Shown here: piece after piece, positions 669 to 57,555 of the stretch
Layout: each line of letters opens with the position of its first letter
How positions within the stretch are numbered: the first letter of the stretch is position 1
IMG/VR virus record: IMGVR_UViG_3300046167_000685
Coordinates: 1-58,588 of that record
Source: a virus
Lineage: Duplodnaviria > Caudoviricetes
DNA: 58,588 bases
Strand: one strand, 5' to 3'
Translations under genes and position numbers: made by a program
Notes under the pieces: generated by a model
Databases searched by the model: none
Seen by the model: the letters and a program-made list of their open reading frames with translations, nothing else
What the model was told of the DNA's origin: nothing

Positions 669-2115
669 ATGGATGTATCTGATCAGGAGTTAAAGCTCCA
701 ACTTCGACTTGCTCAGCTCGAGAAAAATGAAGCTTGTCAGGATGAGTTTCTGCCGTTTGTAAAATCTATGTGGCCGGAGTTCATTGCCGGTCGTCACCAC
801 AGGATCATTGCAGAAAAGTTAGAACGTGTTGCCCGCGGGGAGCTCAAGCGTTTGATCATCAACATGGCCCCGCGGCACACGAAGTCTGAGTTCGCATCCT
901 TCTTGTTCCCGGCGTGGATGATGGGCAAGAACCCGAAGATGAAGATCATTCAGGCTACCCACACGACGGAACTTGCGGTTAACTTTGGACGTAAGACGAA
1001 GAACTTGATTGACAGTGACGAGTACAAGGAGGTCTTTCCGAATGTCAAACTCGCTTCTGATAGTAAAGCTTCTGGTCGTTGGGACACTGCTTCTGGCGGG
1101 ATGTACTACGCCGTTGGTGTGGGATCGAACCTTGCCGGGCGTGGTGGCGACTTGGTAATTATCGATGACCCGCACTCAGAGCAGACAGCTATGTCAACAA
1201 ACGGATTTGATGATGCTTGGGATTGGTACACCGGGGGCCCCCGGCAGCGTCTCCAGCCGGGCGGAAGTATAGTTCTGGTTCAGACCCGGTGGTCCGAGAA
1301 GGACATGACGGGTCAGTTGCTCCGTGCAATGGCTAAAGATCCGCTAGCTGACCAATGGGAGGTTGTAGAGCTTCCGGCCATTTTTGACGACGACAAGCCC
1401 TGTTGGCCGGAGTTTTGGTCTCTTGAGGATCTGACCGCGGTCCGCGCATCTATTCCCCCGAGCAAGTGGAACGCGCAGTATCAGCAGAACCCGACGGGTG
1501 AAGAGAATGCGATCATTCCTCGTCAGTGGTGGAAGAAGTGGGAGAAGGGACAACATCCCGAATCTTGAATATGTGATTCAGAGCTATGACACGGCGTTCT
1601 CGAAACGCGAAACTGCTGACTACTCGGCGATCACGACTTGGGGTGTTTTCAGGCCGGAGGAGGTTGGGGGCCCTCCGGGACTCATACTTTTGGACAGTAC
1701 GAAGGGTCGATGGGATTTTCCGGAGTTGAAGCAGGCGGCTTTAGAGCAGTATAAGTATTGGGACCCCGACACCGTCATAGTAGAAGCCAAGGCTTCTGGG
1801 TTGCCTTTGACGCATGAATTACGGAATATGGGTATTCCTGTTGTTAACTTTACGCCTAGTAAGGGTAATGATAAGGTTACGCGAGTTCATTCTGTATCGC
1901 CGTTATTTGAGGCTGGCATGGTTTGGGCCCCCGACACCACCTTCGCTGACGAGATGATTGAGGAGGTGGCGGCGTTCCCTAACGGGGAGCATGACGACTT
2001 GGTAGATAGCATGACGCAGGCTTTGATGCGTTATCGGCAGGGCAACTTTGTACAGTTGCCGACTGACGATTGGGGCGAAGAGGATACGGGAATGCAAGTT
2101 AGGGCCTATTACTGA
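669..2115 (+). CDS. terL: Terminase large subunit (split by a probable +1 sequencing frameshift near 1547)
   Basis: ATPase motifs INMAPRHTKS, VIIDDPH, VQTRW; C-terminal nuclease SYDTAF...HDDLVDS in ORF 1498-2115; removing one G from gagaagggacaac joins the frames. Confidence 0.9.
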
Positions 2116-6121: not shown

Positions 6122-6151
6122 CGCTGACTGTGGGGCTACGGGAACACGGCC

Positions 6152-6844
6152 ATGGATCCAGTAACTGCTATGGCGACCGCTTCGGCGGCGTTTGGGGCAC
6201 TTAAAAAAGGTTTTGCGATAGGGCGGGACATTGAGTCAATGGCTTCTGACTTGTCCCGGTGGATGGGTGCGCTTTCTGATCTAGATCAGATGGAAAAAGA
6301 AGCTAAGAATCCCCCCATTTTTAAAAAGCTTTTCTCTGGGCAGAGTGTTGAGCAGGAAGCGATCACCACATTCGCCAACAAGCAAAAGGCTCAACAGCAG
6401 CGATACGAGCTACAGCAGTGGATTTCCTTGACCATGGGCAAGTCCAAATGGGATGAGCTTGTTCGCATGGAAGGCCAGATACGAAAAAGACGCCAAGAAA
6501 CTTTGTACAAGCAAAGAGAGCGCAGGCGAAGGTTTGTGGAGGTTGTGGCGTGGGTTATTGTAGTTGGCGTTGGTTTTAGCGCTTTGACGGCGTTCATAAT
6601 GTTTTTAAAAGGTCAAACCGCTTACGCTGACCAGATGACAACTTGTCGTAAAGTTAAGTGCGAAAAAATGGACAATCGTCAGGTAGTTTGTGTTTTTCGA
6701 GGTCAGAACAATACGATTGAATCTCAGATATTTGAGTACATGGAGTTTATCCCCTCGGAGTATCAGTGCAAATACGATCCGAATGCTAAAAAAGAGATGA
6801 CCGTACAAGAGACACTTAGAGCCGTGCGGGACAGTCAGAAATGA
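6152..6844 (+). CDS. Membrane protein at the start of the lysis cluster
   Basis: MDPVTAMATASAAF N-terminus, one central TM segment, Cys-containing C-terminal domain. Confidence 0.65.
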   Translation: MDPVTAMATASAAFGALKKGFAIGRDIESMASDLSRWMGALSDLDQMEKEAKNPPIFKKLFSGQSVEQEAITTFANKQKAQQQRYELQQWISLTMGKSKWDELVRMEGQIRKRRQETLYKQRERRRRFVEVVAWVIVVGVGFSALTAFIMFLKGQTAYADQMTTCRKVKCEKMDNRQVVCVFRGQNNTIESQIFEYMEFIPSEYQCKYDPNAKKEMTVQETLRAVRDSQK

Positions 6845-11948: not shown

Positions 11949-11979
11949 TTCCCTAGTTCAGGGATACACATCAGCAGGG

Positions 11980-12028: not shown

Positions 12029-12071
12029 TCCTGACAGTCACATTGGGTGACTGACACTAGCCACGACAGGA
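12029..12071 (+). promoter_or_regulatory. Structured 5' leader that may sequester the Shine-Dalgarno
   Basis: Hairpin cagtcac/gtgactg (12035-12053) enclosed by tcctg/cagga, the latter overlapping the AGGAG SD. Confidence 0.4.
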
Positions 12072-12078
12072 GATGTAC

Positions 12079-12540
12079 ATGGCTACCACTACTTTTTCTG
12101 GCCCAATCAAAGCCGGACCTATTAAGAACACAACAGGAACTACCCTTGGCACCAACATTGCGAATGTTGGTCAAGTCGTTATGGCTCAAACCTTTTCAGT
12201 AGATCTTTCTGGAGGTGCTGTTGCAGCCGAAGTTACTAATGTTGTTATCCCTGCTAACTCTCAGATTATTGATTGTGTGATTGACGTAATCACTGCGGCG
12301 AGTGGCGCAACTAACCTTAGTGTTGGCGATACTGTTGGCGGTGCGGCCACAATTCTTAACACCTTCGCGATTGGGACGACGGCGGGCCGAAAGTATCCAA
12401 CAACTCAAGCTGGTGCAGCATTGGCGTGGCAAGATACTGGAACAGCCGATATTCGTCTGACCGTTACAGGTTCTGCTGCGACAAGTGCGGGCCTAGTTCG
12501 TGTTACAATCCTGTATCAGCAGAACAACAATCTTGCTTAA
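12079..12540 (+). CDS. Capsid decoration/structural protein
   Basis: MATTTFSGPIK start; beta-rich; after the capsid gene. Confidence 0.65.
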   Translation: MATTTFSGPIKAGPIKNTTGTTLGTNIANVGQVVMAQTFSVDLSGGAVAAEVTNVVIPANSQIIDCVIDVITAASGATNLSVGDTVGGAATILNTFAIGTTAGRKYPTTQAGAALAWQDTGTADIRLTVTGSAATSAGLVRVTILYQQNNNLA

Positions 12541-18976: not shown

Positions 18977-20106
18977 TGGCACTTAGTAAGATTGGCACTA
19001 ATCAGCTTGATTCTACGGCAACGCCAACCTTTGCTGAGTTGGATGTTGATAACGTCAAGGTAAACGGCAACACAATCAGCAGCACAGATACGAATGGCAA
19101 CATCACGCTCGACCCTGATGGCACGGGCGATACGGTTATTGCGTCGGGCAACGTGGGCATCGGCACATCTTCGCCAAACAACCTCCTGACCTTGCAAAGT
19201 AGCGGTTCGACAAAACTAAATCTACGACACACTGCTAGCGGCGATGATTACGGCTATATATTCCGCACTACTGGTGCAACCACCAATGACTTGATTGTGG
19301 AAAGCGAAGTCAATGGCACGGCAACAGAACGTATGCGTATCGACAGCAGCGGCCAAGTAATGATTGGCACAACCACGGCTGGTGGACAGTTTACAGTTAC
19401 GGAAGGCGATGCGACTACAATAATTGACCGTGTTGGCACGAATGTCGCTGGCATCAAGACAGGCAGTGGCGATGATTTCTGCGTCGGTACTGCTGACTAC
19501 ACACAAGCAATCAGGATTAAAAATTCTACTGGTCATGTGGGGATTGGTACAACAGACCCCAGTAGTGGTCACCTCTCTGTCGAGACAGCGCAAAATGAAA
19601 ATGCGGTGTTTGTTCATAACAATGCGTCTAGTATGACCACAAGTTCAGTTCAAGTCTCATCATCAAGAAATACAACGAACGGCACATACCGACATATTCA
19701 AGCCTCTATTCATGGCGTTGCTGACAAGTTTAGGGTTTACGATAGCGGCAACGTAGAAAATTCAAACAACAGCTACGCTGGTATTTCTGACCAACGCATG
19801 AAAGAAAACATTGTAGATGCTGCATCTCAGTGGGATGACATCAAGGCACTACAAGTTCGCAAGTTTAATTTTATAGGTAGTGAATTAACTCAGATTGGTG
19901 TGGTAGCCCAAGAATTAGAAGCTGTTGGTATGGACGGGTTAATTACTGAAACCGAATGGCTTGATGTTGCGGCTAATCCTGACAACGAAGTTCGTAAGTC
20001 AGTCAAATACAGTGTGTTGTACATGAAAGCTATCAAAGCCTTGCAGGAAGCAATGACCCGCATTGAAACCCTCGAAACCAAAGTCGCAGCGCTGGAGGCT
20101 GGCTAA
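18976..20106 (+). CDS. Tail fibre with intramolecular chaperone (peptidase S74) domain
   Basis: GNVGIGT repeats; SDQRMKENI autocleavage motif; GVVAQELE; C-terminal coiled coil. Confidence 0.8.
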   Translation: MALSKIGTNQLDSTATPTFAELDVDNVKVNGNTISSTDTNGNITLDPDGTGDTVIASGNVGIGTSSPNNLLTLQSSGSTKLNLRHTASGDDYGYIFRTTGATTNDLIVESEVNGTATERMRIDSSGQVMIGTTTAGGQFTVTEGDATTIIDRVGTNVAGIKTGSGDDFCVGTADYTQAIRIKNSTGHVGIGTTDPSSGHLSVETAQNENAVFVHNNASSMTTSSVQVSSSRNTTNGTYRHIQASIHGVADKFRVYDSGNVENSNNSYAGISDQRMKENIVDAASQWDDIKALQVRKFNFIGSELTQIGVVAQELEAVGMDGLITETEWLDVAANPDNEVRKSVKYSVLYMKAIKALQEAMTRIETLETKVAALEAG

Positions 20107-47377: not shown

Positions 47378-49232
47378 GTGGGTGCCGCCCGCGGAACTGC
47401 CAGACATCTTCGACGCCAAGCAGATTGCTATCGACGTTGAGACCAGAGACCCCAACATCAAGTCCAACGGTCCCGGCTGGCCGACCGGGGACGGGGAGGT
47501 GGTCGGCTATGCTATAGCAGTGGACGGCTGGTCCGGTTACATACCCACTCGCCATGAGCATGGCGGCAACCTAGACGAGCGCATCGTCAGCAAGTGGCTC
47601 AAGAAAGTGTTTGAGTCCCCTGCCGACAAGATCATGCACAACGCACAGTATGATGCGGGGTGGATACGGCGCATGGGCTTTACCATCAACGGGCGCATCA
47701 TCGACACGATGCTGGTAGCTGCCCTGCTAGATGAGAACCGGTTCAGCTACAGCCTCAACGCCCTGTCCTACGATCTGCTCAAGAAAGTAAAACAGGAAAA
47801 GACACTACAAGAAGCAGCTCGTGAGTTTGGTCTAGACCCAAAAGCAGAGATGTGGAAGATGCCCGCCATGTATGTCGGGCCATATGCAGAGGCCGACGCG
47901 GAACTAACGCTAGAGCTTTGGGGCTATCTTTCGGCTCAGCTAACAAAAGAAGAGCTCTGGCCGATAGCTGATCTGGAGCTCAAGCTTCTACCGTGTCTGG
48001 TGGACATGACATGGCGCGGCGTCCGCGTGGACCAAGACCGTGTAGAGCGCACCCGCAACCACTTGATCAAGGAAGAAAAGGCCACGCTTGCCAAGATTAA
48101 AAACGTAGCCGGTCAGGATGTAGAGCTTTGGGCCGCAGCATCAATAGCGAAAGCCTTCGACAAGCTTAGCATCTCATACCCACGCACTGAGAAGAACGCA
48201 CCGTCCTTCACCAAGTCGTTTCTAGCGGACCACCCGCACGAGCTCGCACAGCTAATCGTCCGGGCCCGCAACCTAAATAAAACAAGCGGCACATTCATTA
48301 ACACCATTATGAAGCACTGCCGCGCAGACGGACGCATCCACGGGCACATCAACCAGATCAGATCGGATGACGGCGGCACCGTATCGGGCCGCATATCTAT
48401 GTCCAACCCCAACCTGCAACAAATCCCGGCCCGCGACCCTGAGCTCGGCCCTATGATCCGCAGTCTGTTTCTACCGGAAGAGGGCGAGCAATGGGCGGCG
48501 ATTGACTTCTCGCAACAGGAACCGCGGATCTTGGTCCACTACGCCTATGTGTATGGCCGGTCCCGCGGCGCACAGATGGCAGGAGTCGAGGAGTTCGTCA
48601 CCGCTTACCGAGAAGACCCGGACATGGATTTTCACACCATGGTGGCAGAGATGGCTAACATCCCGCGTAAGCAGGCCAAAACAATAAATCTGGGAATGAT
48701 GTACGGCATGGGCGTCAACAAGCTATCCGACCAGCTCGACATCGAGGTAGATGAAGCCAAAGCGCTAGTCAGCCAGTACCACGACCGCGTCCCCTTCGTT
48801 AAAGGATTAATGAACGGCGTGATGAACAGCCTCAATAGCAGGAGCTCAAGCGGCTCTGTGCGCTCTATCTTAGGCCGCAAATGTCGGTTTGAGCTCTGGG
48901 AACCAGCTACTTTTGCCATGCACAAAGCCCTACCATACAAAGATGCGCTCAAAGAGTATGGAGAAACTACTCGGCTAAAAAGAGCATATACCTACAAAGC
49001 CCTTAACAGGCTCATACAAGCGTCAGCAGCAGACATGACTAAACAGGCCATGGTGAATATTTATGAACAAGGACGCCTGCCTCTGGTGCAAATCCACGAT
49101 GAAATCGCCATGTCTGTGAAAAATCGTGAAGATGCAAATACTGTTGCTGAAATAATGGAAAATGCTGTACCGTTGGAGGTGCCAAGCAAATGCGATGTTG
49201 AGATCGGCCCAAGCTGGGGCGAAGCAAGCTGA
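47340..49232 (+). CDS. polA: DNA polymerase family A with 3'-5' exonuclease
   Basis: DVET, HNAQYD exonuclease motifs; GRISMSNPNLQQIP, DFSQQEPR, KTINLGMMYG, IHDE. Confidence 0.95.
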   Translation: MALQMAMFAPKSEWVPPAELPDIFDAKQIAIDVETRDPNIKSNGPGWPTGDGEVVGYAIAVDGWSGYIPTRHEHGGNLDERIVSKWLKKVFESPADKIMHNAQYDAGWIRRMGFTINGRIIDTMLVAALLDENRFSYSLNALSYDLLKKVKQEKTLQEAAREFGLDPKAEMWKMPAMYVGPYAEADAELTLELWGYLSAQLTKEELWPIADLELKLLPCLVDMTWRGVRVDQDRVERTRNHLIKEEKATLAKIKNVAGQDVELWAAASIAKAFDKLSISYPRTEKNAPSFTKSFLADHPHELAQLIVRARNLNKTSGTFINTIMKHCRADGRIHGHINQIRSDDGGTVSGRISMSNPNLQQIPARDPELGPMIRSLFLPEEGEQWAAIDFSQQEPRILVHYAYVYGRSRGAQMAGVEEFVTAYREDPDMDFHTMVAEMANIPRKQAKTINLGMMYGMGVNKLSDQLDIEVDEAKALVSQYHDRVPFVKGLMNGVMNSLNSRSSSGSVRSILGRKCRFELWEPATFAMHKALPYKDALKEYGETTRLKRAYTYKALNRLIQASAADMTKQAMVNIYEQGRLPLVQIHDEIAMSVKNREDANTVAEIMENAVPLEVPSKCDVEIGPSWGEAS

Positions 49233-49290
49233 GCTTTTTCATGGTTTTCCTCCCTAAACTGGCCCTGAGCTCCGCTTGGGGCCCTTTTTC
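49233..49290 (+). ncRNA. polA 3' UTR with terminator; candidate antisense RNA to the SNF2 helicase start
   Basis: ctttttcatggttttcctcc (49234-49253) mirrors 41868-41886, followed by hairpin 49261-49283 and a T-run. Confidence 0.45.
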
Positions 49291-49339
49291 TCTTGTATCT
49301 CTGCCACTTGTCCTATATATTCCCTTACAGGAGGTGTAA

Positions 49340-49480
49340 ATGGATACATCTAAATGGAAATCTGTGCTTGTACCGATTGAGGTATACGAACAGATTCGCA
49401 AGATAGCTCGCCAAGAAGGACGGACCATTAGTGGTCAGCTCCGGATCATGTGGGATATCTACAGAAAACACCAATCCTGA
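49340..49480 (+). CDS. Ribbon-helix-helix-like regulator (46 aa, not in ORF track)
   Basis: MDTSKWKSVLVPIEVYEQIRKIARQEGRTISGQLRIMWDIYRKHQS; RBS AGGAGG; promoter-like TTGTAT...TATATT upstream. Confidence 0.7.
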   Translation: MDTSKWKSVLVPIEVYEQIRKIARQEGRTISGQLRIMWDIYRKHQS

Positions 49481-49571
49481 CGGCTGAATAACGAGTGTCA
49501 ATTCAGTTGACATCTTTTTTTAGCTATAGTATGGGATAAGTTCTATTTAATCGTATAGCGAGGGTTTACTA

Positions 49572-49811
49572 ATGCTAAGAAATCTACTCAAAATATTGTT
49601 TCCGAGCTTCTTTGAGGAGCCGGAAAGAGCGCGAGACAAGAAAGGCCGGTTGATGGGCGACGATGCGTCCACACCAACTTTCAACGAAGCATGGGTCGGG
49701 GGCAAAGCCCCGGTACAACAGAAAGCCCCACCGAAAAAGCGGGGCAGGCCGGTAGGAAGCAAGAATAAACCGGCAGCTAAAAAGAGAGGGCGTCCGAAAA
49801 AAAATGCTTGA
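49572..49811 (+). CDS. Small protein with two AT-hook-like motifs
   Basis: RARDKKGRLMGDDASTPTFNEAW; KKRGRP twice. Confidence 0.7.
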   Translation: MLRNLLKILFPSFFEEPERARDKKGRLMGDDASTPTFNEAWVGGKAPVQQKAPPKKRGRPVGSKNKPAAKKRGRPKKNA

Positions 49812-50232
49812 TGCTACTTTAGTGTGTTTGGCTACAGCTATTTATTTTGAGTCCAGAGGCGAACCATTCGTCGGACAGTCCGCTGTAGCCCACGTTGTGC
49901 TAAACCGGGTCGAAGATACCCGGTTCCCCAACGACATCTGTTCTGTAGTGAAGCAGGGCCCCACATATGCGTGGAAACCCGACTTCCCTGTCCGCAACAT
50001 GTGCCAGTTTAGCTACTACTGCGATGGCAAGTCTGACCAGCCAACCGATGAACAGGCATGGCAGACCGCGGTCCTCGCGGCTTTTGGAGCTGTGTCTGGC
50101 CGTACATATGATCCCACTGAAGGCGCAACTCACTACCATGCCGATTATGTCAATCCCGCATGGGCTGAAGTTAAATACAAAACCGTCCGGATCAATGACC
50201 ACATATTTTATAAATGGGAAGGAGACAGATGA
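49804..50232 (+). CDS. Cell wall hydrolase (SleB/Hydrolase_2 family)
   Basis: CLATAIYFESRGE...AVAHVVLNRV...CQFSY...GATHYHA. Confidence 0.9.
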   Translation: MLDATLVCLATAIYFESRGEPFVGQSAVAHVVLNRVEDTRFPNDICSVVKQGPTYAWKPDFPVRNMCQFSYYCDGKSDQPTDEQAWQTAVLAAFGAVSGRTYDPTEGATHYHADYVNPAWAEVKYKTVRINDHIFYKWEGDR

Positions 50233-50390
50233 AACCTTGTCCAGAATGTGGCGGTAAGGGAGAATGTGAATATGAAGTCGCCGTATCTGCACCAATGGCG
50301 TGGAGCGGCGGCTGGCTCGAAGGACGCATTATGGAATGCCAACTGTGTGAAGGAACAGGAGAAGTAGATGAGGATGAGGCCGAAGAATAG
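50229..50390 (+). CDS. Stand-alone DnaJ-type zinc finger (53 aa, not in ORF track)
   Basis: CPECGGKG ... CQLCEGTG. Confidence 0.7.
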   Translation: MKPCPECGGKGECEYEVAVSAPMAWSGGWLEGRIMECQLCEGTGEVDEDEAEE

Positions 50391-50559
50391 AGAGCTTCAG
50401 TACCCTACCATCGGGGATCCGGGCGTGATCCAAAAACGGCTGGACGCAGGCCGCTGCCCAAAGTGCGATACCCAGCTCAAAGAGCCCACGCGCTGCGGCT
50501 CTTGTAAACTGCAACTTCCCGAAAACTTAGCTCCTAAAAAGTCCTTGTCTTTCCCATAA
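50368..50559 (+). CDS. Small zinc-ribbon protein
   Basis: CPKC...CGSC. Confidence 0.6.
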   Translation: MRMRPKNRELQYPTIGDPGVIQKRLDAGRCPKCDTQLKEPTRCGSCKLQLPENLAPKKSLSFP

Positions 50560-50576
50560 GATCGCGTATGTTGGGA

Positions 50577-50626
50577 TCGTTCCCGTAGTTGGGCCCCGGA
50601 GAGAAATCTCCGGGGCTTTTCTTTTT
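50577..50626 (+). ncRNA. Candidate trans-acting sRNA (anti-RBS seed plus terminator)
   Basis: Promoter-like TTGTCT-16 nt-TATGTT upstream; seed TCGTTCCCGTAGTTG; 10-bp stem with GAAA loop (50593-50616); T-run. Confidence 0.55.
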
Positions 50627-50629
50627 GTG

Positions 50630-50658
50630 TTGACTATGTATGCGATAAGTCTTATATA
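50630..50658 (+). promoter_or_regulatory. Sigma70-type promoter with operator-like palindrome
   Basis: TTGACT-17 nt-TATATA-CAGG, same hexamers as the 41887 promoter; TATGCGATAAGTCTTATA at 50639-50656. Confidence 0.7.
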
Positions 50659-50686
50659 CAGGTTACACCAACTAGGGAGAACTTAA

Positions 50687-51541
50687 ATGCCGACACTCCG
50701 GGAAATGTCAGACGCCGCGGAAGCGCGGGGGCATAAAACATTCAACACCGGCAAGCCGTGCGTCAGGGGCCATACTTGTGACAGATATGTCGGGGTGCCG
50801 TTTGGTTGCAAAGAGTGCGTCAGGGAAAACAAGTACGAGCGAATAAACCCGGACAGCCCAAGAGGCATTGCTAAGGCCAAAGGTTTAAAGCGATACCGCG
50901 ACGGCAAGCCCTGTAAAAAGAAAGGGCATATCGCGGAGCGCTTCACCATGAGCGCACGATGCTGCGAGTGCGAAGCAGAACGTCAGCGCAGCCCAGAGGC
51001 AAAAGCCTACCGTGAAAAGTGGCGGCAGGAAAACAAAGAGCACTCTCAGAAATGGGCGAGAGACAGGTATCAAAACCCGGATTCCCCGCACCGGGAGGAA
51101 TACCTGCGGCGCAAAAGGCAGCATAGCCGGGACAACATCGAATACTACAAGCGGAAAGACAAGGAACGCCGCGACAGCTTTACGGAACAAGACAAGGAAA
51201 GAAACAAGCGCAACGCTCGGAGGTGGGCTAATCAAAACAAGGAACGTGTGTCTGCTTATGGGCGCTTGAGCCATAACAAACGTAAACGGGCAAAGCTCAA
51301 AGGGGCAAGCTGGGATTCTTTTGTGCCAATTTACGAGAAGCGTGAGCGCCTAACGAGAGAAACCGGCGTTAAGCACCACGTTGATCATTATTACCCGCTA
51401 ACTCACGACAGAGTGTGCGGGCTGCACGTGCCTTGGAACCTGCAAGTAATTACCGCTGCGGAAAACTTGGCTAAAGGCAACAAGATGCCCGAAGAGTTTT
51501 ACGGGCCTGACCACCAACTAGGGAGAGACCACAATGCGTAA
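50687..51541 (+). CDS. HNH endonuclease
   Basis: HHVDHYYPL...[23 protein letters not shown]; two GKPC..GH..R..C.EC repeats; flanked by a 15-bp direct repeat. Confidence 0.85.
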
Positions 51542-51719
51542 GAAAGAAGAGCTGTTCGATATCGTCCGCGGCATGGAGTATACTGATGCCGTGGCCGCAG
51601 TCTCCAGCGCAATCAACGCGCAAACGTCCACCATTGCAGCCAAGGGTGATTATAGCCGTGAGGCCGTCGAAACAGCAGAAAACCTGCTTGCGGCGTGGTT
51701 AAGGGTACAACGCGGATGA
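51534..51719 (+). CDS. Hypothetical protein
   Basis: 61 aa; CAACTAGGGAG leader. Confidence 0.65.
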
Positions 51720-51961
51720 GCGACGATCTCGAAAAGCAGTTCGACTATGCAGGCGACGAAATGAACGCCCTGCTCGATCAACTAGAAACCGACGGGTTTG
51801 ATACCGGCGCGGTACTGGGCGGAGCTCTTACAGCTCTTCTGTTCCGGCTCGTAGTCGCAAGCCCCAACGGCAGCACCGCAATCGGTATGCTGTCTTCAGC
51901 CATGCACCAAGCAGCAACCATTGCCCGTGCATATGACGAGGAAGAGGAGACCAAACATTGA
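51716..51961 (+). CDS. Hypothetical protein
   Basis: ATG overlaps the previous stop (ATGA). Confidence 0.6.
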   Translation: MSDDLEKQFDYAGDEMNALLDQLETDGFDTGAVLGGALTALLFRLVVASPNGSTAIGMLSSAMHQAATIARAYDEEEETKH

Positions 51962-52227
51962 CTAATTTTACTTTGAGCGAAGAGGCGCGGCGCGAGTTGT
52001 TGCAGTCTTACAACGAACTGCGTACGGCTATGTCAAACATTTGGGAATGCCAAGACCTGTGGATGTCTGACATTACCAACCTCGAAAAGTTGGTGAACCG
52101 GATGCAAAGGCACTTGGACTTTGCTCAACCAACAGAAGGCCACGCATATATGAATTATGTGCTGGCAGAAGATAACAAGCCCGCACCCAAAAAACGTGGA
52201 CGGCCCGCAAAGGGAGCAAAAAAATGA
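51958..52227 (+). CDS. Hypothetical protein with AT-hook-like tail
   Basis: TTG start with GAGGAG RBS; PKKRGRP. Confidence 0.6.
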   Translation: MTNFTLSEEARRELLQSYNELRTAMSNIWECQDLWMSDITNLEKLVNRMQRHLDFAQPTEGHAYMNYVLAEDNKPAPKKRGRPAKGAKK

Positions 52228-52409
52228 CAAAGCTTAATGAACATCAAGCAGCAGCCGCGCTGCTGAACCAAGCTATCCACGCCGTCAACGATTTGTGGCT
52301 GGAAGCAGATGGCGACGATAAGCCCTTCTTAGATCAAGCAATCAGCAAGCTGCACGAAGCGCAGTCCCTAATGCTGAAAGCGCGGTTGCGAGTTGACAGC
52401 CCAAAATAA
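52224..52409 (+). CDS. Hypothetical protein
   Basis: 61 aa; GGGAG RBS. Confidence 0.6.
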   Translation: MTKLNEHQAAAALLNQAIHAVNDLWLEADGDDKPFLDQAISKLHEAQSLMLKARLRVDSPK

Positions 52410-52454
52410 AGGTCTTAGTTTTTCCCATATCAACTACATAAAGGGAGAAAGCTG

Positions 52455-52682
52455 ATGGCTAAATTTTACCACTGGCAGGGAGAAGGGTCCGACGGCAACG
52501 TCTACGAAGGCGAATATAAGTTCACTGCAAAAGAAGCAAAGAACGATGCAATCAAACACGGGATGCCTCAACCAGACGGGTTCACCATCTTTGAGACAAA
52601 GGTTACCGACACGGCAACCACGCTCCGTAATCTCTTAAACCAAGAGATGAAAATAATCGGAGAAGTAAAGCCGGTGGGATAA
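52455..52682 (+). CDS. Hypothetical protein (own promoter and terminator)
   Basis: TTGACA-17 nt-TAGTTT upstream; GGGAG RBS. Confidence 0.65.
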   Translation: MAKFYHWQGEGSDGNVYEGEYKFTAKEAKNDAIKHGMPQPDGFTIFETKVTDTATTLRNLLNQEMKIIGEVKPVG

Positions 52683-52712
52683 CTCCCATCCTGGACCTAA
52701 CTTTTGAAAACG

Positions 52713-52747
52713 TAAGGGGTGCGGCACGATGTCGCACCCCTTATTTT
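52713..52747 (+). terminator. Intrinsic terminator
   Basis: taaggggtgcggca-cga-tgtcgcacccctta followed by tttt. Confidence 0.75.
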
Positions 52748-52876
52748 GTCGTGTATAGTATAAGATAAGTCGCATATGGGACATCTCTTTTAACTCATTG
52801 ATTTATAATATAAAGATAAGAAGAGCGCAAAAGCGCCCACGCTATTTGAAACCGTCAACAACTACGGGAGGTCAGT

Positions 52877-53185
52877 ATGACTGACACCAACGCCGCATCT
52901 GTCTGGGTCGTCGAGAGCAAGCTGCTCGAAACCGCCGATAAGGAATACGAGTGGGGGGACTGCATGTCCTTTACCTCGATCCTTATCGACGAGTGTAACG
53001 GCCATCGGTTAGACGAGGTCGAAGACAACACCTTCGATCTAGGTTACGTACGCGCCGTGGAATACGCTTCCCGAATGGGTAGGATGTATGCCGCAACTCA
53101 ATACTTTAGGGTTACCCTTAAAGACAGCCGTTTCGATAACGTCGGAAAAGAGTTCGTCTTCAAGGGGACAAGCCAAAGGACCTGA
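52877..53185 (+). CDS. Hypothetical protein
   Basis: 102 aa; CAACTACGGGAGG leader. Confidence 0.65.
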   Translation: MTDTNAASVWVVESKLLETADKEYEWGDCMSFTSILIDECNGHRLDEVEDNTFDLGYVRAVEYASRMGRMYAATQYFRVTLKDSRFDNVGKEFVFKGTSQRT

Positions 53186-53211
53186 GAAGCATAAACCGCG
53201 GCTCACGGATC

Positions 53212-53239
53212 AGGGCTCCGCTTCGGCGGGGCCCTTTTT
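53212..53239 (+). terminator. Intrinsic terminator
   Basis: agggctccgc-TTCG-gcggggccct followed by a T-run. Confidence 0.85.
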
Positions 53240-53478
53240 GTTACTGTTACCTATATAGGGAGAAAATTAAAAAAAATAAAAAACACAAAAAATATGCGGT
53301 AACATCGGTAACAAAAGTAACAGTACTCTGTAATCGTTACTCACTAAGGATTACAGAAGTATAGGAGTGTTACTTTTTGTGTTACTTATTTGAAACCAAA
53401 AAAGTAACAGAGGAAATGACCTTAAAGGGGGGTTCGCGGGATTTTTTTTAAAAATATTTTTTGCTCTATATAAGTAAC
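53240..53478. repeat. AT-rich region with GTAAC/GTTAC iterons (candidate replication origin or packaging site)
   Basis: 10 GTAAC/GTTAC copies, three at 9-bp spacing (53299, 53308, 53317); long A-tracts; non-coding. Confidence 0.55.
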
Positions 53479-53522
53479 CTCTGTAAAAAGGATGGGAGTT
53501 GACCTTTTTAACTGAGGAAACG

Positions 53523-54480: not shown

Positions 54481-54521
54481 TCCCATATATCAGGGAGACA
54501 ACTTCAACACGGGAGATTGCG

Positions 54522-54979: not shown

Positions 54980-55030
54980 GTTTTCTATATATGTGGGATA
55001 AATCGCATATAACTACGGGAGCAATTAACC

Positions 55031-56050: not shown

Positions 56051-56136
56051 GGGAAATTAACTTGCGTATGGTGGGATAATGTGAGACAACACCCAGACGG
56101 CCCAAGCCGGGCCGCATTTTAACGGGAGCATAACCA

Positions 56137-57468: not shown

Positions 57469-57555
57469 ATGCTTTTAATACTGGCAAAAATCCCATATAA
57501 AAAATTATGTGAAAAAGTATCAAATGATACTTTGCAAGTATGGGAACGAAAACCA

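Follow-up and report, generated by a model that had tools for sequence, protein, structure and literature searches.

The 58,588-base-pair (bp) stretch of DNA analyzed here, hereafter the window, is the complete IMG/VR record of an uncultured marine phage with direct terminal repeats, and at positions 50579-50626 it carries what we regard, with good though not full confidence, as a real gene for a small RNA (sRNA) of ~48 nucleotides (nt), predicted to pair in trans with leaders at the ribosome-binding sites (RBSs) of the phage's own genes and to repress them as a set. The unit is most likely a trans-acting anti-Shine-Dalgarno (anti-SD) sRNA repressing a regulon of phage cassette genes, a reading supported by comparisons among related sequences, namely conservation, co-occurrence and co-variation. 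The unit itself, its conservation and structure, a complementarity to the leaders that goes beyond its anti-SD content, and the co-occurrence and co-variation of RNA and leaders were all observed in silico. Since the RNA and the leader tag have changed together in related phages, one RNA probably throttles the translation of the gene set.

The predicted small RNA unit and its conservation

The first-pass annotation of this DNA had described, at 50545-50626, a promoter-like TTGTCT-16-TATGTT followed by a seed, a GAAA hairpin and a T-run, and each of these elements could be read in the sequence. Positions 50577-50591 read TCGTTCCCGTAGTTG, and the seed as written in the RNA unit is GUUCCCGUAGUUG; the hairpin GCCCCGGAGA-GAAA-TCTCCGGGGC and then TTTTCTTTTT complete the unit, and the terminator scan lists 50591-50618 with 12 pairs, eight of them G-C, and a loop of 4. 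The RNA predicted from this arrangement would be ~48 nt long and would run from 50579 to ~50626. A clear terminator is present in the window as well as in the loci L306, L286 and L282, and the seed is unpaired in the folds and conserved, as in a trans-acting base-pairing sRNA.

The hydrolase and the HNH-type gene led to close relatives, and the DUF7227 gene, with 10-kb flanks, to further ones. The close relatives keep the whole sRNA block, with different genes following it. Among 11 type-A sequences none of the 40 columns over the seed and hairpin (50579-50618) was variable, and in the same sequences variable columns numbered 13 of 83 in the unit (50545-50626), 61 of 177 in the upstream open reading frame (ORF) and 32 of 60 in the next promoter and leader. 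The seed core UUCCCGUAG is invariant in the clade to which the window belongs (clade 1), both in 10 aligned sequences of forms B to E and in 22 distinct units, the latter having been collected by that 9-mer.

The longer forms of the unit consist of a -35-like hexamer, 16-17 nt, a -10-like hexamer, ~7 nt and an 8-bp hairpin with a CCCCAA loop, after which come the single-stranded (G)UUCCCGUAG with 3-6 nt and the terminator. Terminator loops differ by form (GAAA, UUCGCACGA, GAUGCCG and UUCGG), with compensatory changes in the stem, and the promoter-like hexamers keep their distance to the seed in all forms (TTGCAA-16-TATATT, TTGACT-17-TATATA, TTGCAA-16-TATAAG and TTGACA-17-TATAAA). The window form has lost the 5' hairpin, so that its seed would lie at the very 5' end. 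In an alignment of 10 sequences the two helices have 98.2% of their cells paired, vs 24-55% with slid partners, and the structure of the unit is supported in this respect. Furthermore, a covariance model built from 8 long forms recovers the short form of the window at E 3e-9. Minus-strand matches of this model in L280, L284, L279 and L283 (13-19 bits) were rejected as leader antisense beside a two-way terminator, and further weak matches, in L028/L029, L270 and L287-L289 as well as at L289:12541, were dropped as other terminators. The exact 14-mer was present in at least 119 stretches of viral contigs, mostly by chance and within unrelated sequence, with the hairpin in ~20 of the matches listed, several of which were already in the sample.

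In the type C locus L286, an RBS (19078-19089) matches the complement of the first-hairpin loop region (AGCCCCCAAGCU) of the long form at all 12 positions; the first codons of its gene resemble those of the window gene at 6152, whose leader matches the main seed instead. By analogy with the M1 motif of the AbcR sRNAs, this loop may be a second seed. As a regulon reader it was rejected, with one RBS match only and no such leader set, and no third seed type was found when looked for in the L309-L313 relatives.

Leaders at ribosome-binding sites

Every leader site cited in the first-pass annotation is present at an RBS, namely 52859 (CAACTACGGGA), 55011 (AACTACGGGA), 6136 (CTACGGGAAC), 56122 (ACGGGAGC), 57535 (CAAGTATGGGAACGA, with one mismatch and one G:U), 54505 (CAAC-ACGGGA), 50668 and 51514 (both CCAACTA-GGGA), and the bulged variant at 52431. 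The paired block ends 3-7 nt from the start codon at every leader, and the six or seven better sites form duplexes of 11-13 bp at -15 to -22 kcal/mol. The number of predicted target genes, put earlier at about eight, stands as about 6-8. The sites at 52431 (5-nt bulge) and 56122 (8 bp) are weak, and those at 50668 and 51514, on either side of the HNH-type gene, represent a single leader that has been duplicated. The targets are spread over at least five separate promoter-terminator cassettes, in addition to the gene at 6152.

Two labels given to these targets are not supported. Their description as early genes is an interpretation, and the block of 50.7-58 kb also holds a small-terminase gene; the gene at 6152, previously labelled the first lysis-cluster gene and perhaps a lysis gene, has only a weak S_4TM match and a PHROG of unknown function. 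The leader of the DUF932 gene contains AACGGGAGCAT, which is kept in relatives, and the promoter-leader module at 50667 stands before different genes in relatives. The 51513 leader, a repeat of 14-15 nt, is operon-internal and has no adjoining promoter.

The same 15-nt leader brackets the HNH/endonuclease VII-like gene, at 50666-50680 and at 51512-51526. In close relatives other genes lie behind the same promoter-leader, and the sRNA-less relative G001 keeps the HNH-type gene with the leader; from these arrangements the gene looks like a mobile cassette travelling with its leader. The leader region of the 143-amino-acid (aa) gene, 57491-57545, contains TCCCATA ... TATGGGA, the second copy overlapping the SD, on either side of a perfect 9-bp palindrome, AAAGTATCA-AA-TGATACTTT; the arrangement may serve as an operator or fold into an anti-SD structure in cis.

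Complementarity of seed and leaders

Start sites were taken from a crude ORF tiling limited to plus-strand ORFs of 45 aa or more, with 54522 added by hand. Searches with the 15-mer at up to 3 mismatches gave 5 matches vs 1.23 expected, a number reached in none of 100 shuffles. In the 58.6-kb genome the motif AACTAC?GGGA has four plus-strand copies, all at RBSs, and two minus-strand copies, the seed and 11958. The predicted pairing of the seed with start regions was compared with shuffled controls by RNAduplex: with the 14-nt seed, 12, 7 and 5 of the 71 start regions reached -14, -16 and -18 kcal/mol or lower, counts equalled by 2, 1 and 0 of 300 full seed shuffles; the excess was moderate when GUUCCC was fixed, and GUUCCC followed by a random 8-mer equalled the counts in 19, 9 and 1 of 300. 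Over the whole plus strand, five of the six sites at or below -18.9 kcal/mol lie at start regions, which make up ~4.8% of the sequence. Start regions at or below -14 kcal/mol are concentrated in the segment of 50.6-58.6 kb (7 of 16) vs that of 6-49 kb (2 of 66). Several unlinked targets are thereby predicted to pair at their initiation regions, and they co-vary with the seed as described below.

Co-variation and co-occurrence in related phages

The leader counts that follow are of distinct sequences, not of independent events. Among clade 1 seeds, the extension of the core reads UUG in 37 loci, UAG in 5 and UGA in 4. Opposite the middle letter of the extension, the leaders of UUG genomes carry A in 24 cases, T in 1 and G in 4, and those of UAG genomes carry T in 5 and A in 2; for A vs T ([24, 1] against [2, 5]) Fisher's test gave p = 6e-4, uncorrected for relatedness. 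The seed GUAGUUG is found together with CAACUAC leaders and the seed GUAGUAG with UACUACGGGAG (UACUAC) leaders, and leaders matching the one at 52858 have CAACUAC where the seed extension is UUG and CUACUAC where it is UAG. The T leaders form three groups by sequence alone, two of which have look-alikes (CAACUAC/CAACUAU) in UUG genomes.

A distant clade 2 (~55% protein identity in DUF7227) has a homologous unit according to the covariance model (L306:2631-2707, E 2e-4; L297:2330-2416, E 4.5e-3). The hexamers of the clade 2 units are TTGACA-17-TATAAA, their spacer contains the same TCCCATAAAGTCGC, and a terminator is present; ACAUUCUCCAAU or ACAUUCUCCAAAAUG serves as the seed, and each locus has (U)UUGGAGAAUG(U) as the leader at 4-7 RBSs. 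Here the motif comprises SD and spacer, and the DUF7227 orthologs carry AUUGGAGAAUG. Between the clades the whole pair has been switched, from UUCCCGUAG/CUACGGGAG to ACAUUCUCCAA/UUGGAGAAUG. In G013 (56 kb) the 9-mer TGGAGAATG is present four times in sense, always at RBSs, and once in antisense, as the seed; it is absent from G001, G002, G011 and G012, and CTACGGGAR shows the converse pattern. Cognate seeds find 4-7 start regions at or below -14 kcal/mol, and seeds of the other clade 0-1. The co-variation of seed and leaders that had been anticipated for relatives was therefore found at two levels, a U-to-A change in the seed extension with A-to-U in the leaders, and the switch between clades. 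A scan of 180 loci of at least 6 kb for RBS 8-mers shared by three or more genes, with their complement before a terminator, returned only these two seed/leader systems and nothing in 77 unrelated loci, although its crude hairpin and T-run filters missed the known L282 and L286 units.

Two complete relatives, G001 (59.5 kb, syntenic, 65-80% nucleotide identity) and G002, have no RNA unit by BLAST or covariance model. In G001 the leader is present as a single copy, before the HNH-type gene, and the cassette genes are without a recurrent leader; its DUF7227 ortholog has AAAGAGGG where the window has AACUACGGGAG. Orthologs of the 6152 gene keep (A)CUACGGGAA in the RNA-holding records L292 and L318, and no such motif was found in the orthologs of the RNA-less G001 and L022 (G002).

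In clade 2, a second copy of the seed core, ACATTCTCC, was observed at a gene end in L296:2100 and L297:5697, followed by a hairpin, a T-run and the UUUGGAGAAUGU leader of the next gene. This copy may be an anti-leader RNA of the type that derives from a 3' untranslated region (3'UTR).

Genome context

Nearly all genes of the window are on the plus strand, and head and tail genes are recognizable (Table 1). The large terminase lies in two overlapping ORFs, which may reflect a frameshift, an assembly error or a programmed shift. Short promoter-terminator cassettes extend from the sRNA unit up to 58 kb and include the HNH/endonuclease VII-like, small-terminase, DUF7227 and DUF932 genes. The upstream 63-aa ORF has its stop codon within the promoter-like element of the sRNA. 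Judged by PolA, DSL-LC04 and the Pelagibacter phages HTVC023P and HTVC027P are closest among cultured phages (49-57% identity); a blastn search of the phage collection with 50300-53300 as the query was negative. A 21-kb contig in a metagenome-assembled genome labelled Verrucomicrobiales, with the same length and range as L294, was rejected as host evidence because the binning of phage contigs is unreliable.

Table 1. Features of the 58,588-bp window, with the predicted RNA unit and its putative target leaders listed first.
Feature	Position	Strand	Description
Promoter-like element	50545-50572	+	-35 TTGTCT 50545-50550, 16-nt spacer with TCCCATAAGATCGC, -10 TATGTT 50567-50572
Seed	50579-50592	+	GUUCCCGUAGUUGG; predicted single-stranded 5' end; unpaired in minimum-free-energy fold
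Rho-independent terminator	50591-50626	+	10-12 bp stem, GAAA loop, U-run; -25.1 kcal/mol, z -3.7
Leader of HNH/endonuclease VII-like gene (start 50687)	50667-50683	+	ACCAACTAGGGAGAACT; -19.2 kcal/mol, 13 bp, one bulge
Leader of 61-aa gene (start 51534)	51513-51526	+	Duplicate of 50667 leader; -16.5 kcal/mol
Leader of 102-aa gene (start 52877)	52858-52871	+	ACAACTACGGGAGG; -20.6 kcal/mol, 12 bp
Leader of 98-aa gene (start 54522)	54504-54516	+	TCAACACGGGAGA; weaker; -15.4 kcal/mol, 11 bp
Leader of DUF7227 gene (start 55031)	55009-55023	+	ATAACTACGGGAGCA; -21.9 kcal/mol, 13 bp
Leader of DUF932 gene (start 56137), possible weak target	56121-56130	+	AACGGGAGCA; -14.8 kcal/mol, 8 bp only
Leader of 143-aa gene (start 57556)	57534-57548	+	GCAAGTATGGGAACG; -18.9 kcal/mol, 12 bp, one mismatch and one G:U
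Leader of 230-aa gene (start 6152), outside cassette block	6133-6146	+	GGGCTACGGGAACA; -21.0 kcal/mol, 12 bp
Large terminase	669-2115		Two overlapping ORFs, 669-1568 and 1498-2115; match successive parts of same PHROG
Portal	3540		
Replication genes	40-49 kb		Helicase (minus strand), then primase, second helicase, PolA
RHH ORF, 46 aa	49340-49480		RHH_5 match E 1.6e-5
SleB-type cell-wall hydrolase	49804-50232		
63-aa ORF	50368-50559	+	Last gene of lysis-side cluster; context, outside RNA; faint zinc-ribbon-type match

Shortly upstream of the sRNA unit, the loci L286 (3169-3543) and L282 (335-652) contain Zn-ribbon ORFs, NrdR/Ogr-Delta-like, which by their sequence are candidate transcription regulators beside the RNA gene. 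The 3' tail of polA, UUUUCCUCCCUAAAC, and its terminator (49227-49298) gave a sub-threshold Rfam match to suhB/mmgR, with 35.5 bits vs a gathering score of 41 (E 0.001); the stretch resembles an anti-SD before a terminator and may be a second candidate of the same theme or a relic of a minus-strand gene start. The Rfam motif Mu-gpT-DE lies at 12029-12081, directly after the major head gene, with 71.8 bits vs a gathering score of 49. The A-rich, low-complexity intergenic stretch at 53160-53479 has very deep, low-identity contig cover in all four runs, oligo-dT RNA included, which is a composition artefact and no sign of expression.

Proposed mechanism

We infer transcription of the RNA, its 5' end, pairing in vivo, repression, the use of a host chaperone and the timing of the effect, in the following manner. 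Transcription would be driven by a promoter belonging to the unit itself, either weak or regulated, and the seed GUUCCCGUAGUUG of the RNA would pair with a private leader, (CA)ACUA(C)GGGAR, overlapping the SD of ~6-8 phage genes, mostly separately transcribed cassette genes at 50.7-57.6 kb, plus the gene at 6152. Pairing would span the SD and the 5-7 nt before it; clade 2 differs in that the SD would be paired together with the spacer that follows. Since the SD is covered, binding of the 30S subunit would be blocked and translation reduced, and the stability of the messenger RNA (mRNA) would probably fall too. The likeliest purpose would be a brake on dosage or timing, stronger the more RNA has accumulated, which we rank before the exclusion of related phages. 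The long U-tail would fit a chaperone of the host; no Hfq or ProQ domain is encoded by the phage. Moreover, the TCCCATA half-site in the sRNA promoter spacer recurs, inverted, in the cassette promoters, and hence a DNA-binding regulator may, speculatively, coordinate the sRNA and the cassettes.

As a tentative extension, which we hold possible and yet rather unlikely as a whole, the leader would be an address label and the RNA its reader, so that any gene captured behind the 10-12 nt leader would join the regulon; lineages would re-code the seed and all their leaders at once into orthogonal pairs, by which co-circulating marine phages would be divided into groups of immunity or incompatibility at the level of translation, and the longer forms might hold a second seed in the loop of the first hairpin.

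Several observations weigh against a repressing sRNA in the window, and the first concern its expression. The window promoter is weak, with 8 of 12 consensus positions, and it is under the scan threshold of 9 and therefore unlisted; the scan tool lists the sRNA promoter in one of four loci, L282 (9/12), and not in the window, L306 or L286, and in three forms the -10 is without its usual final T (in L306 and L286, where the promoter is unlisted, it ends in A). The scan itself carries no information here, because 9 promoter-like sites were found vs 9.0 expected. The unit adjoins the 3' end of a co-directional ORF in the window and in form C, and could therefore arise as a 3'UTR end. Of the sequencing runs found, 23 were of DNA and one of oligo-dT RNA (0.06 share); in the latter no contig on 49000-58588 covered 50280-50919, a result that is uninformative on expression. 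Some leaders, among them those of 55031 and 52455, abut -10-like hexamers, so that part of the motif may be untranscribed, depending on the start site.

The remaining ones concern the strength of the comparative signal. Shuffles keeping GUUCCC equalled the duplex counts at -14, -16 and -18 kcal/mol in 26, 9 and 7 of 300, and the part of the seed outside the anti-SD therefore contributes only moderately in this test; the sixth strong duplex site, 17046, lies inside a gene. The co-variation amounts to few evolutionary events, one single-base change and one clade-level switch, and the UGA forms (D and E) show no matching leader change, their leaders carrying A in 9 cases, T in 1 and C in 1 (1 of 11 with C). 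Structural covariation in the unit is thin as well, with 2 double-change pairs, a number matched by 17 of 500 shuffles.

Alternative explanations

It is possible, though we consider it unlikely, that the RNA is real and does pair, and that its main role is directed by phage against phage, as an immunity-type code through which a phage, resident or co-infecting, would silence the cassette genes of relatives sharing its leader, and from which clades would escape by switching. The existence of two mutually orthogonal seed/leader pairs in related phages would suit such a code, as would promoter-leader modules placed before different genes in close relatives, and there is a precedent in c4 of P1 and P7, described as the basis of heteroimmunity and acting at the ant ribosome-binding site (PMC12197685). 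However, the clade 1 subtypes cross-react fully, nothing points to synthesis of the RNA in a carrier state, and no integrase or lysogeny module was met among the proteins scanned, a subset of the ORFs.

That the RNA pairs without simple repression, as a guide for RNase III or RNase E, as a stabilizer or activator of mRNA, or on host mRNAs through GUUCCC, appears improbable to us. GUUCCC between two hairpins is the layout of the M2 motif as described for AbcR (PMC5461406), and RNase III could, by inference only, act on duplexes of 12-13 bp; however, the SD itself is covered, which makes occlusion the default outcome, and it is the phage leaders that co-vary with the seed. In place of GUUCCC there is AUUCCC in forms D and E and CAUUCUCC in clade 2; therefore no host-directed motif is conserved.

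We give very little credence to the hairpin being an ordinary terminator of the upstream operon, with the complementary 9-14 nt as a relic, such as an inverted leader copy, devoid of trans function. The co-directional ORF before the unit in the window and in form C and the weak window promoter would agree with this, together with a similar anti-RBS-like stretch before the polA terminator (49234-49253) and a chance minus-strand copy of the motif at 11958. Against it, the bases 5' of the stem are invariant while the flanks vary, and the stretch is kept with different upstream genes, minus-strand ones included, changes with the leaders and is absent where the leaders are absent. Indeed, in forms D (L282) and E (L107) the next upstream gene is a conserved minus-strand PD-(D/E)XK gene (65% aa identity between the loci), so that the hairpin is not simply the terminator of a co-directional gene.

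Least probable of these, and hardly to be expected, is that the shared motif is a DNA site (CTACGGGA) for a phage regulator working in either orientation, for example the RHH protein, with the seed as an operator overlapping GTTGGGA-TCGT-TCCCGTA. TATGGGA/TCCCATA half-sites do recur in right-arm promoters and in the sRNA promoter spacer, and the ORF at 49340-49480 has its RHH_5 match (Table 1). Nevertheless, such an operator together with a generic SD, which had been named as a full explanation of the match, fails to account for it, given that the partner half-site GTTGGGA-TCGT is present only in the short form of the window and forms B to E have the hairpin there. Further, the TATGGGA-N4-TCCCATA pair is absent from the window, the leaders are always on the sense strand and 3-7 nt from starts, promoterless operon-internal genes included, and in clade 2 the motif consists of the SD and the spacer. 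It may well be that the promoters are controlled by a DNA operator, through a different motif. In this regard, TATG(N)GGGATAA(A/G)TC with inverted TCCCATA half-sites was observed in the promoters at 49530, 50639, 52759, 54992 and 56072, as an operator-like set. An extended match to 16S ribosomal RNA as the reason for the leader was rejected by reasoning only, because the two clades use unrelated leader extensions.

Comparison with known systems

The timing of phage gene expression is usually ascribed to promoters, sigma factors, anti-terminators and a few RNA-binding proteins. In phage T4, the translational repressor RegA and the RegB endoribonuclease act at the ribosome-binding sites of a set of phage mRNAs, which are thus shut down post-transcriptionally; unlike these proteins, the specificity factor of the regulon proposed here would be an RNA, and the specificity would lie in an added leader tag. 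To our knowledge, phage antisense RNAs act on one operon each, and the trans-acting phage sRNAs known so far are directed mainly against host genes.

The unit matches no Rfam family. At gathering scores, cmscan of the whole window gave Mu-gpT-DE only and no family on the unit; at E <= 1, no match fell on the unit in 48900-52200 or in the loci of three relatives. The unit was matched neither by the covariance model of the C4 family (P1/P7 c4) nor by that of the AbcR family, with which it shares the 6-nt M2 motif alone. A limited literature search found no such leader-and-RNA pair described in the HTVC023P-like marine phage group or elsewhere.

The c4 RNA is cut from the same transcript that it controls, and it governs one operon (icd-ant). 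Its description, within the immI system of P1 and P7, is of a small phage RNA with short complementarity to the ribosome-binding region of its own mRNA, whose translation is blocked, and in which matching differences between RNA and target tell related phages apart (PMC12197685), all of which resembles what is proposed for the window. Unlike c4, the RNA studied here has its own promoter-like element and would neither be processed from its own operon transcript nor act on it, and it matches 6-8 separately transcribed genes.

The first-pass annotation had also drawn on the AbcR sRNAs of Rhizobiales. In the account given in PMC5461406, GUUCCC is indeed motif M2, which pairs with translation-initiation regions of many mRNAs; in AbcR1 and AbcR2 it is single-stranded between the first and the next hairpin, as in the longer phage forms (PMC5461406). 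The likeness does not extend to kinship, and the RNA, which gave no Rfam match, is no relative of AbcR. The AbcR RNAs belong to the host and regulate ABC-transporter mRNAs of the host, whereas the phage seed extends to CGUAGUUG and has phage leaders as its partners, and forms D and E as well as clade 2 are without GUUCCC.

PreS/LPR1 of lambda and VpdS of the Vibrio phage VP882 are, like the RNA proposed here, phage-encoded trans-acting base-pairing sRNAs, reported as Hfq-dependent and as acting chiefly on host mRNAs and sRNAs (bioRxiv 10.1101/2024.10.31.621285; PMC12197685). As far as the accounts of PreS and VpdS in these sources go, no private leader common to many phage genes is described.

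In brief, the closest analogues would be c4 of P1 and P7 by action and the M2 motif of AbcR by layout, and its many unlinked targets set the RNA of the window apart from c4. If the proposed function is true, an RNA-level regulon would be added to phage developmental control, the common leader of unrelated cassette genes would be explained, and a natural pair of orthogonal seed/leader codes would become open to simple reporters. The comparative evidence points to one sRNA that reads a private RBS tag of many independently transcribed genes, with tag and RNA re-coded together in sister clades.

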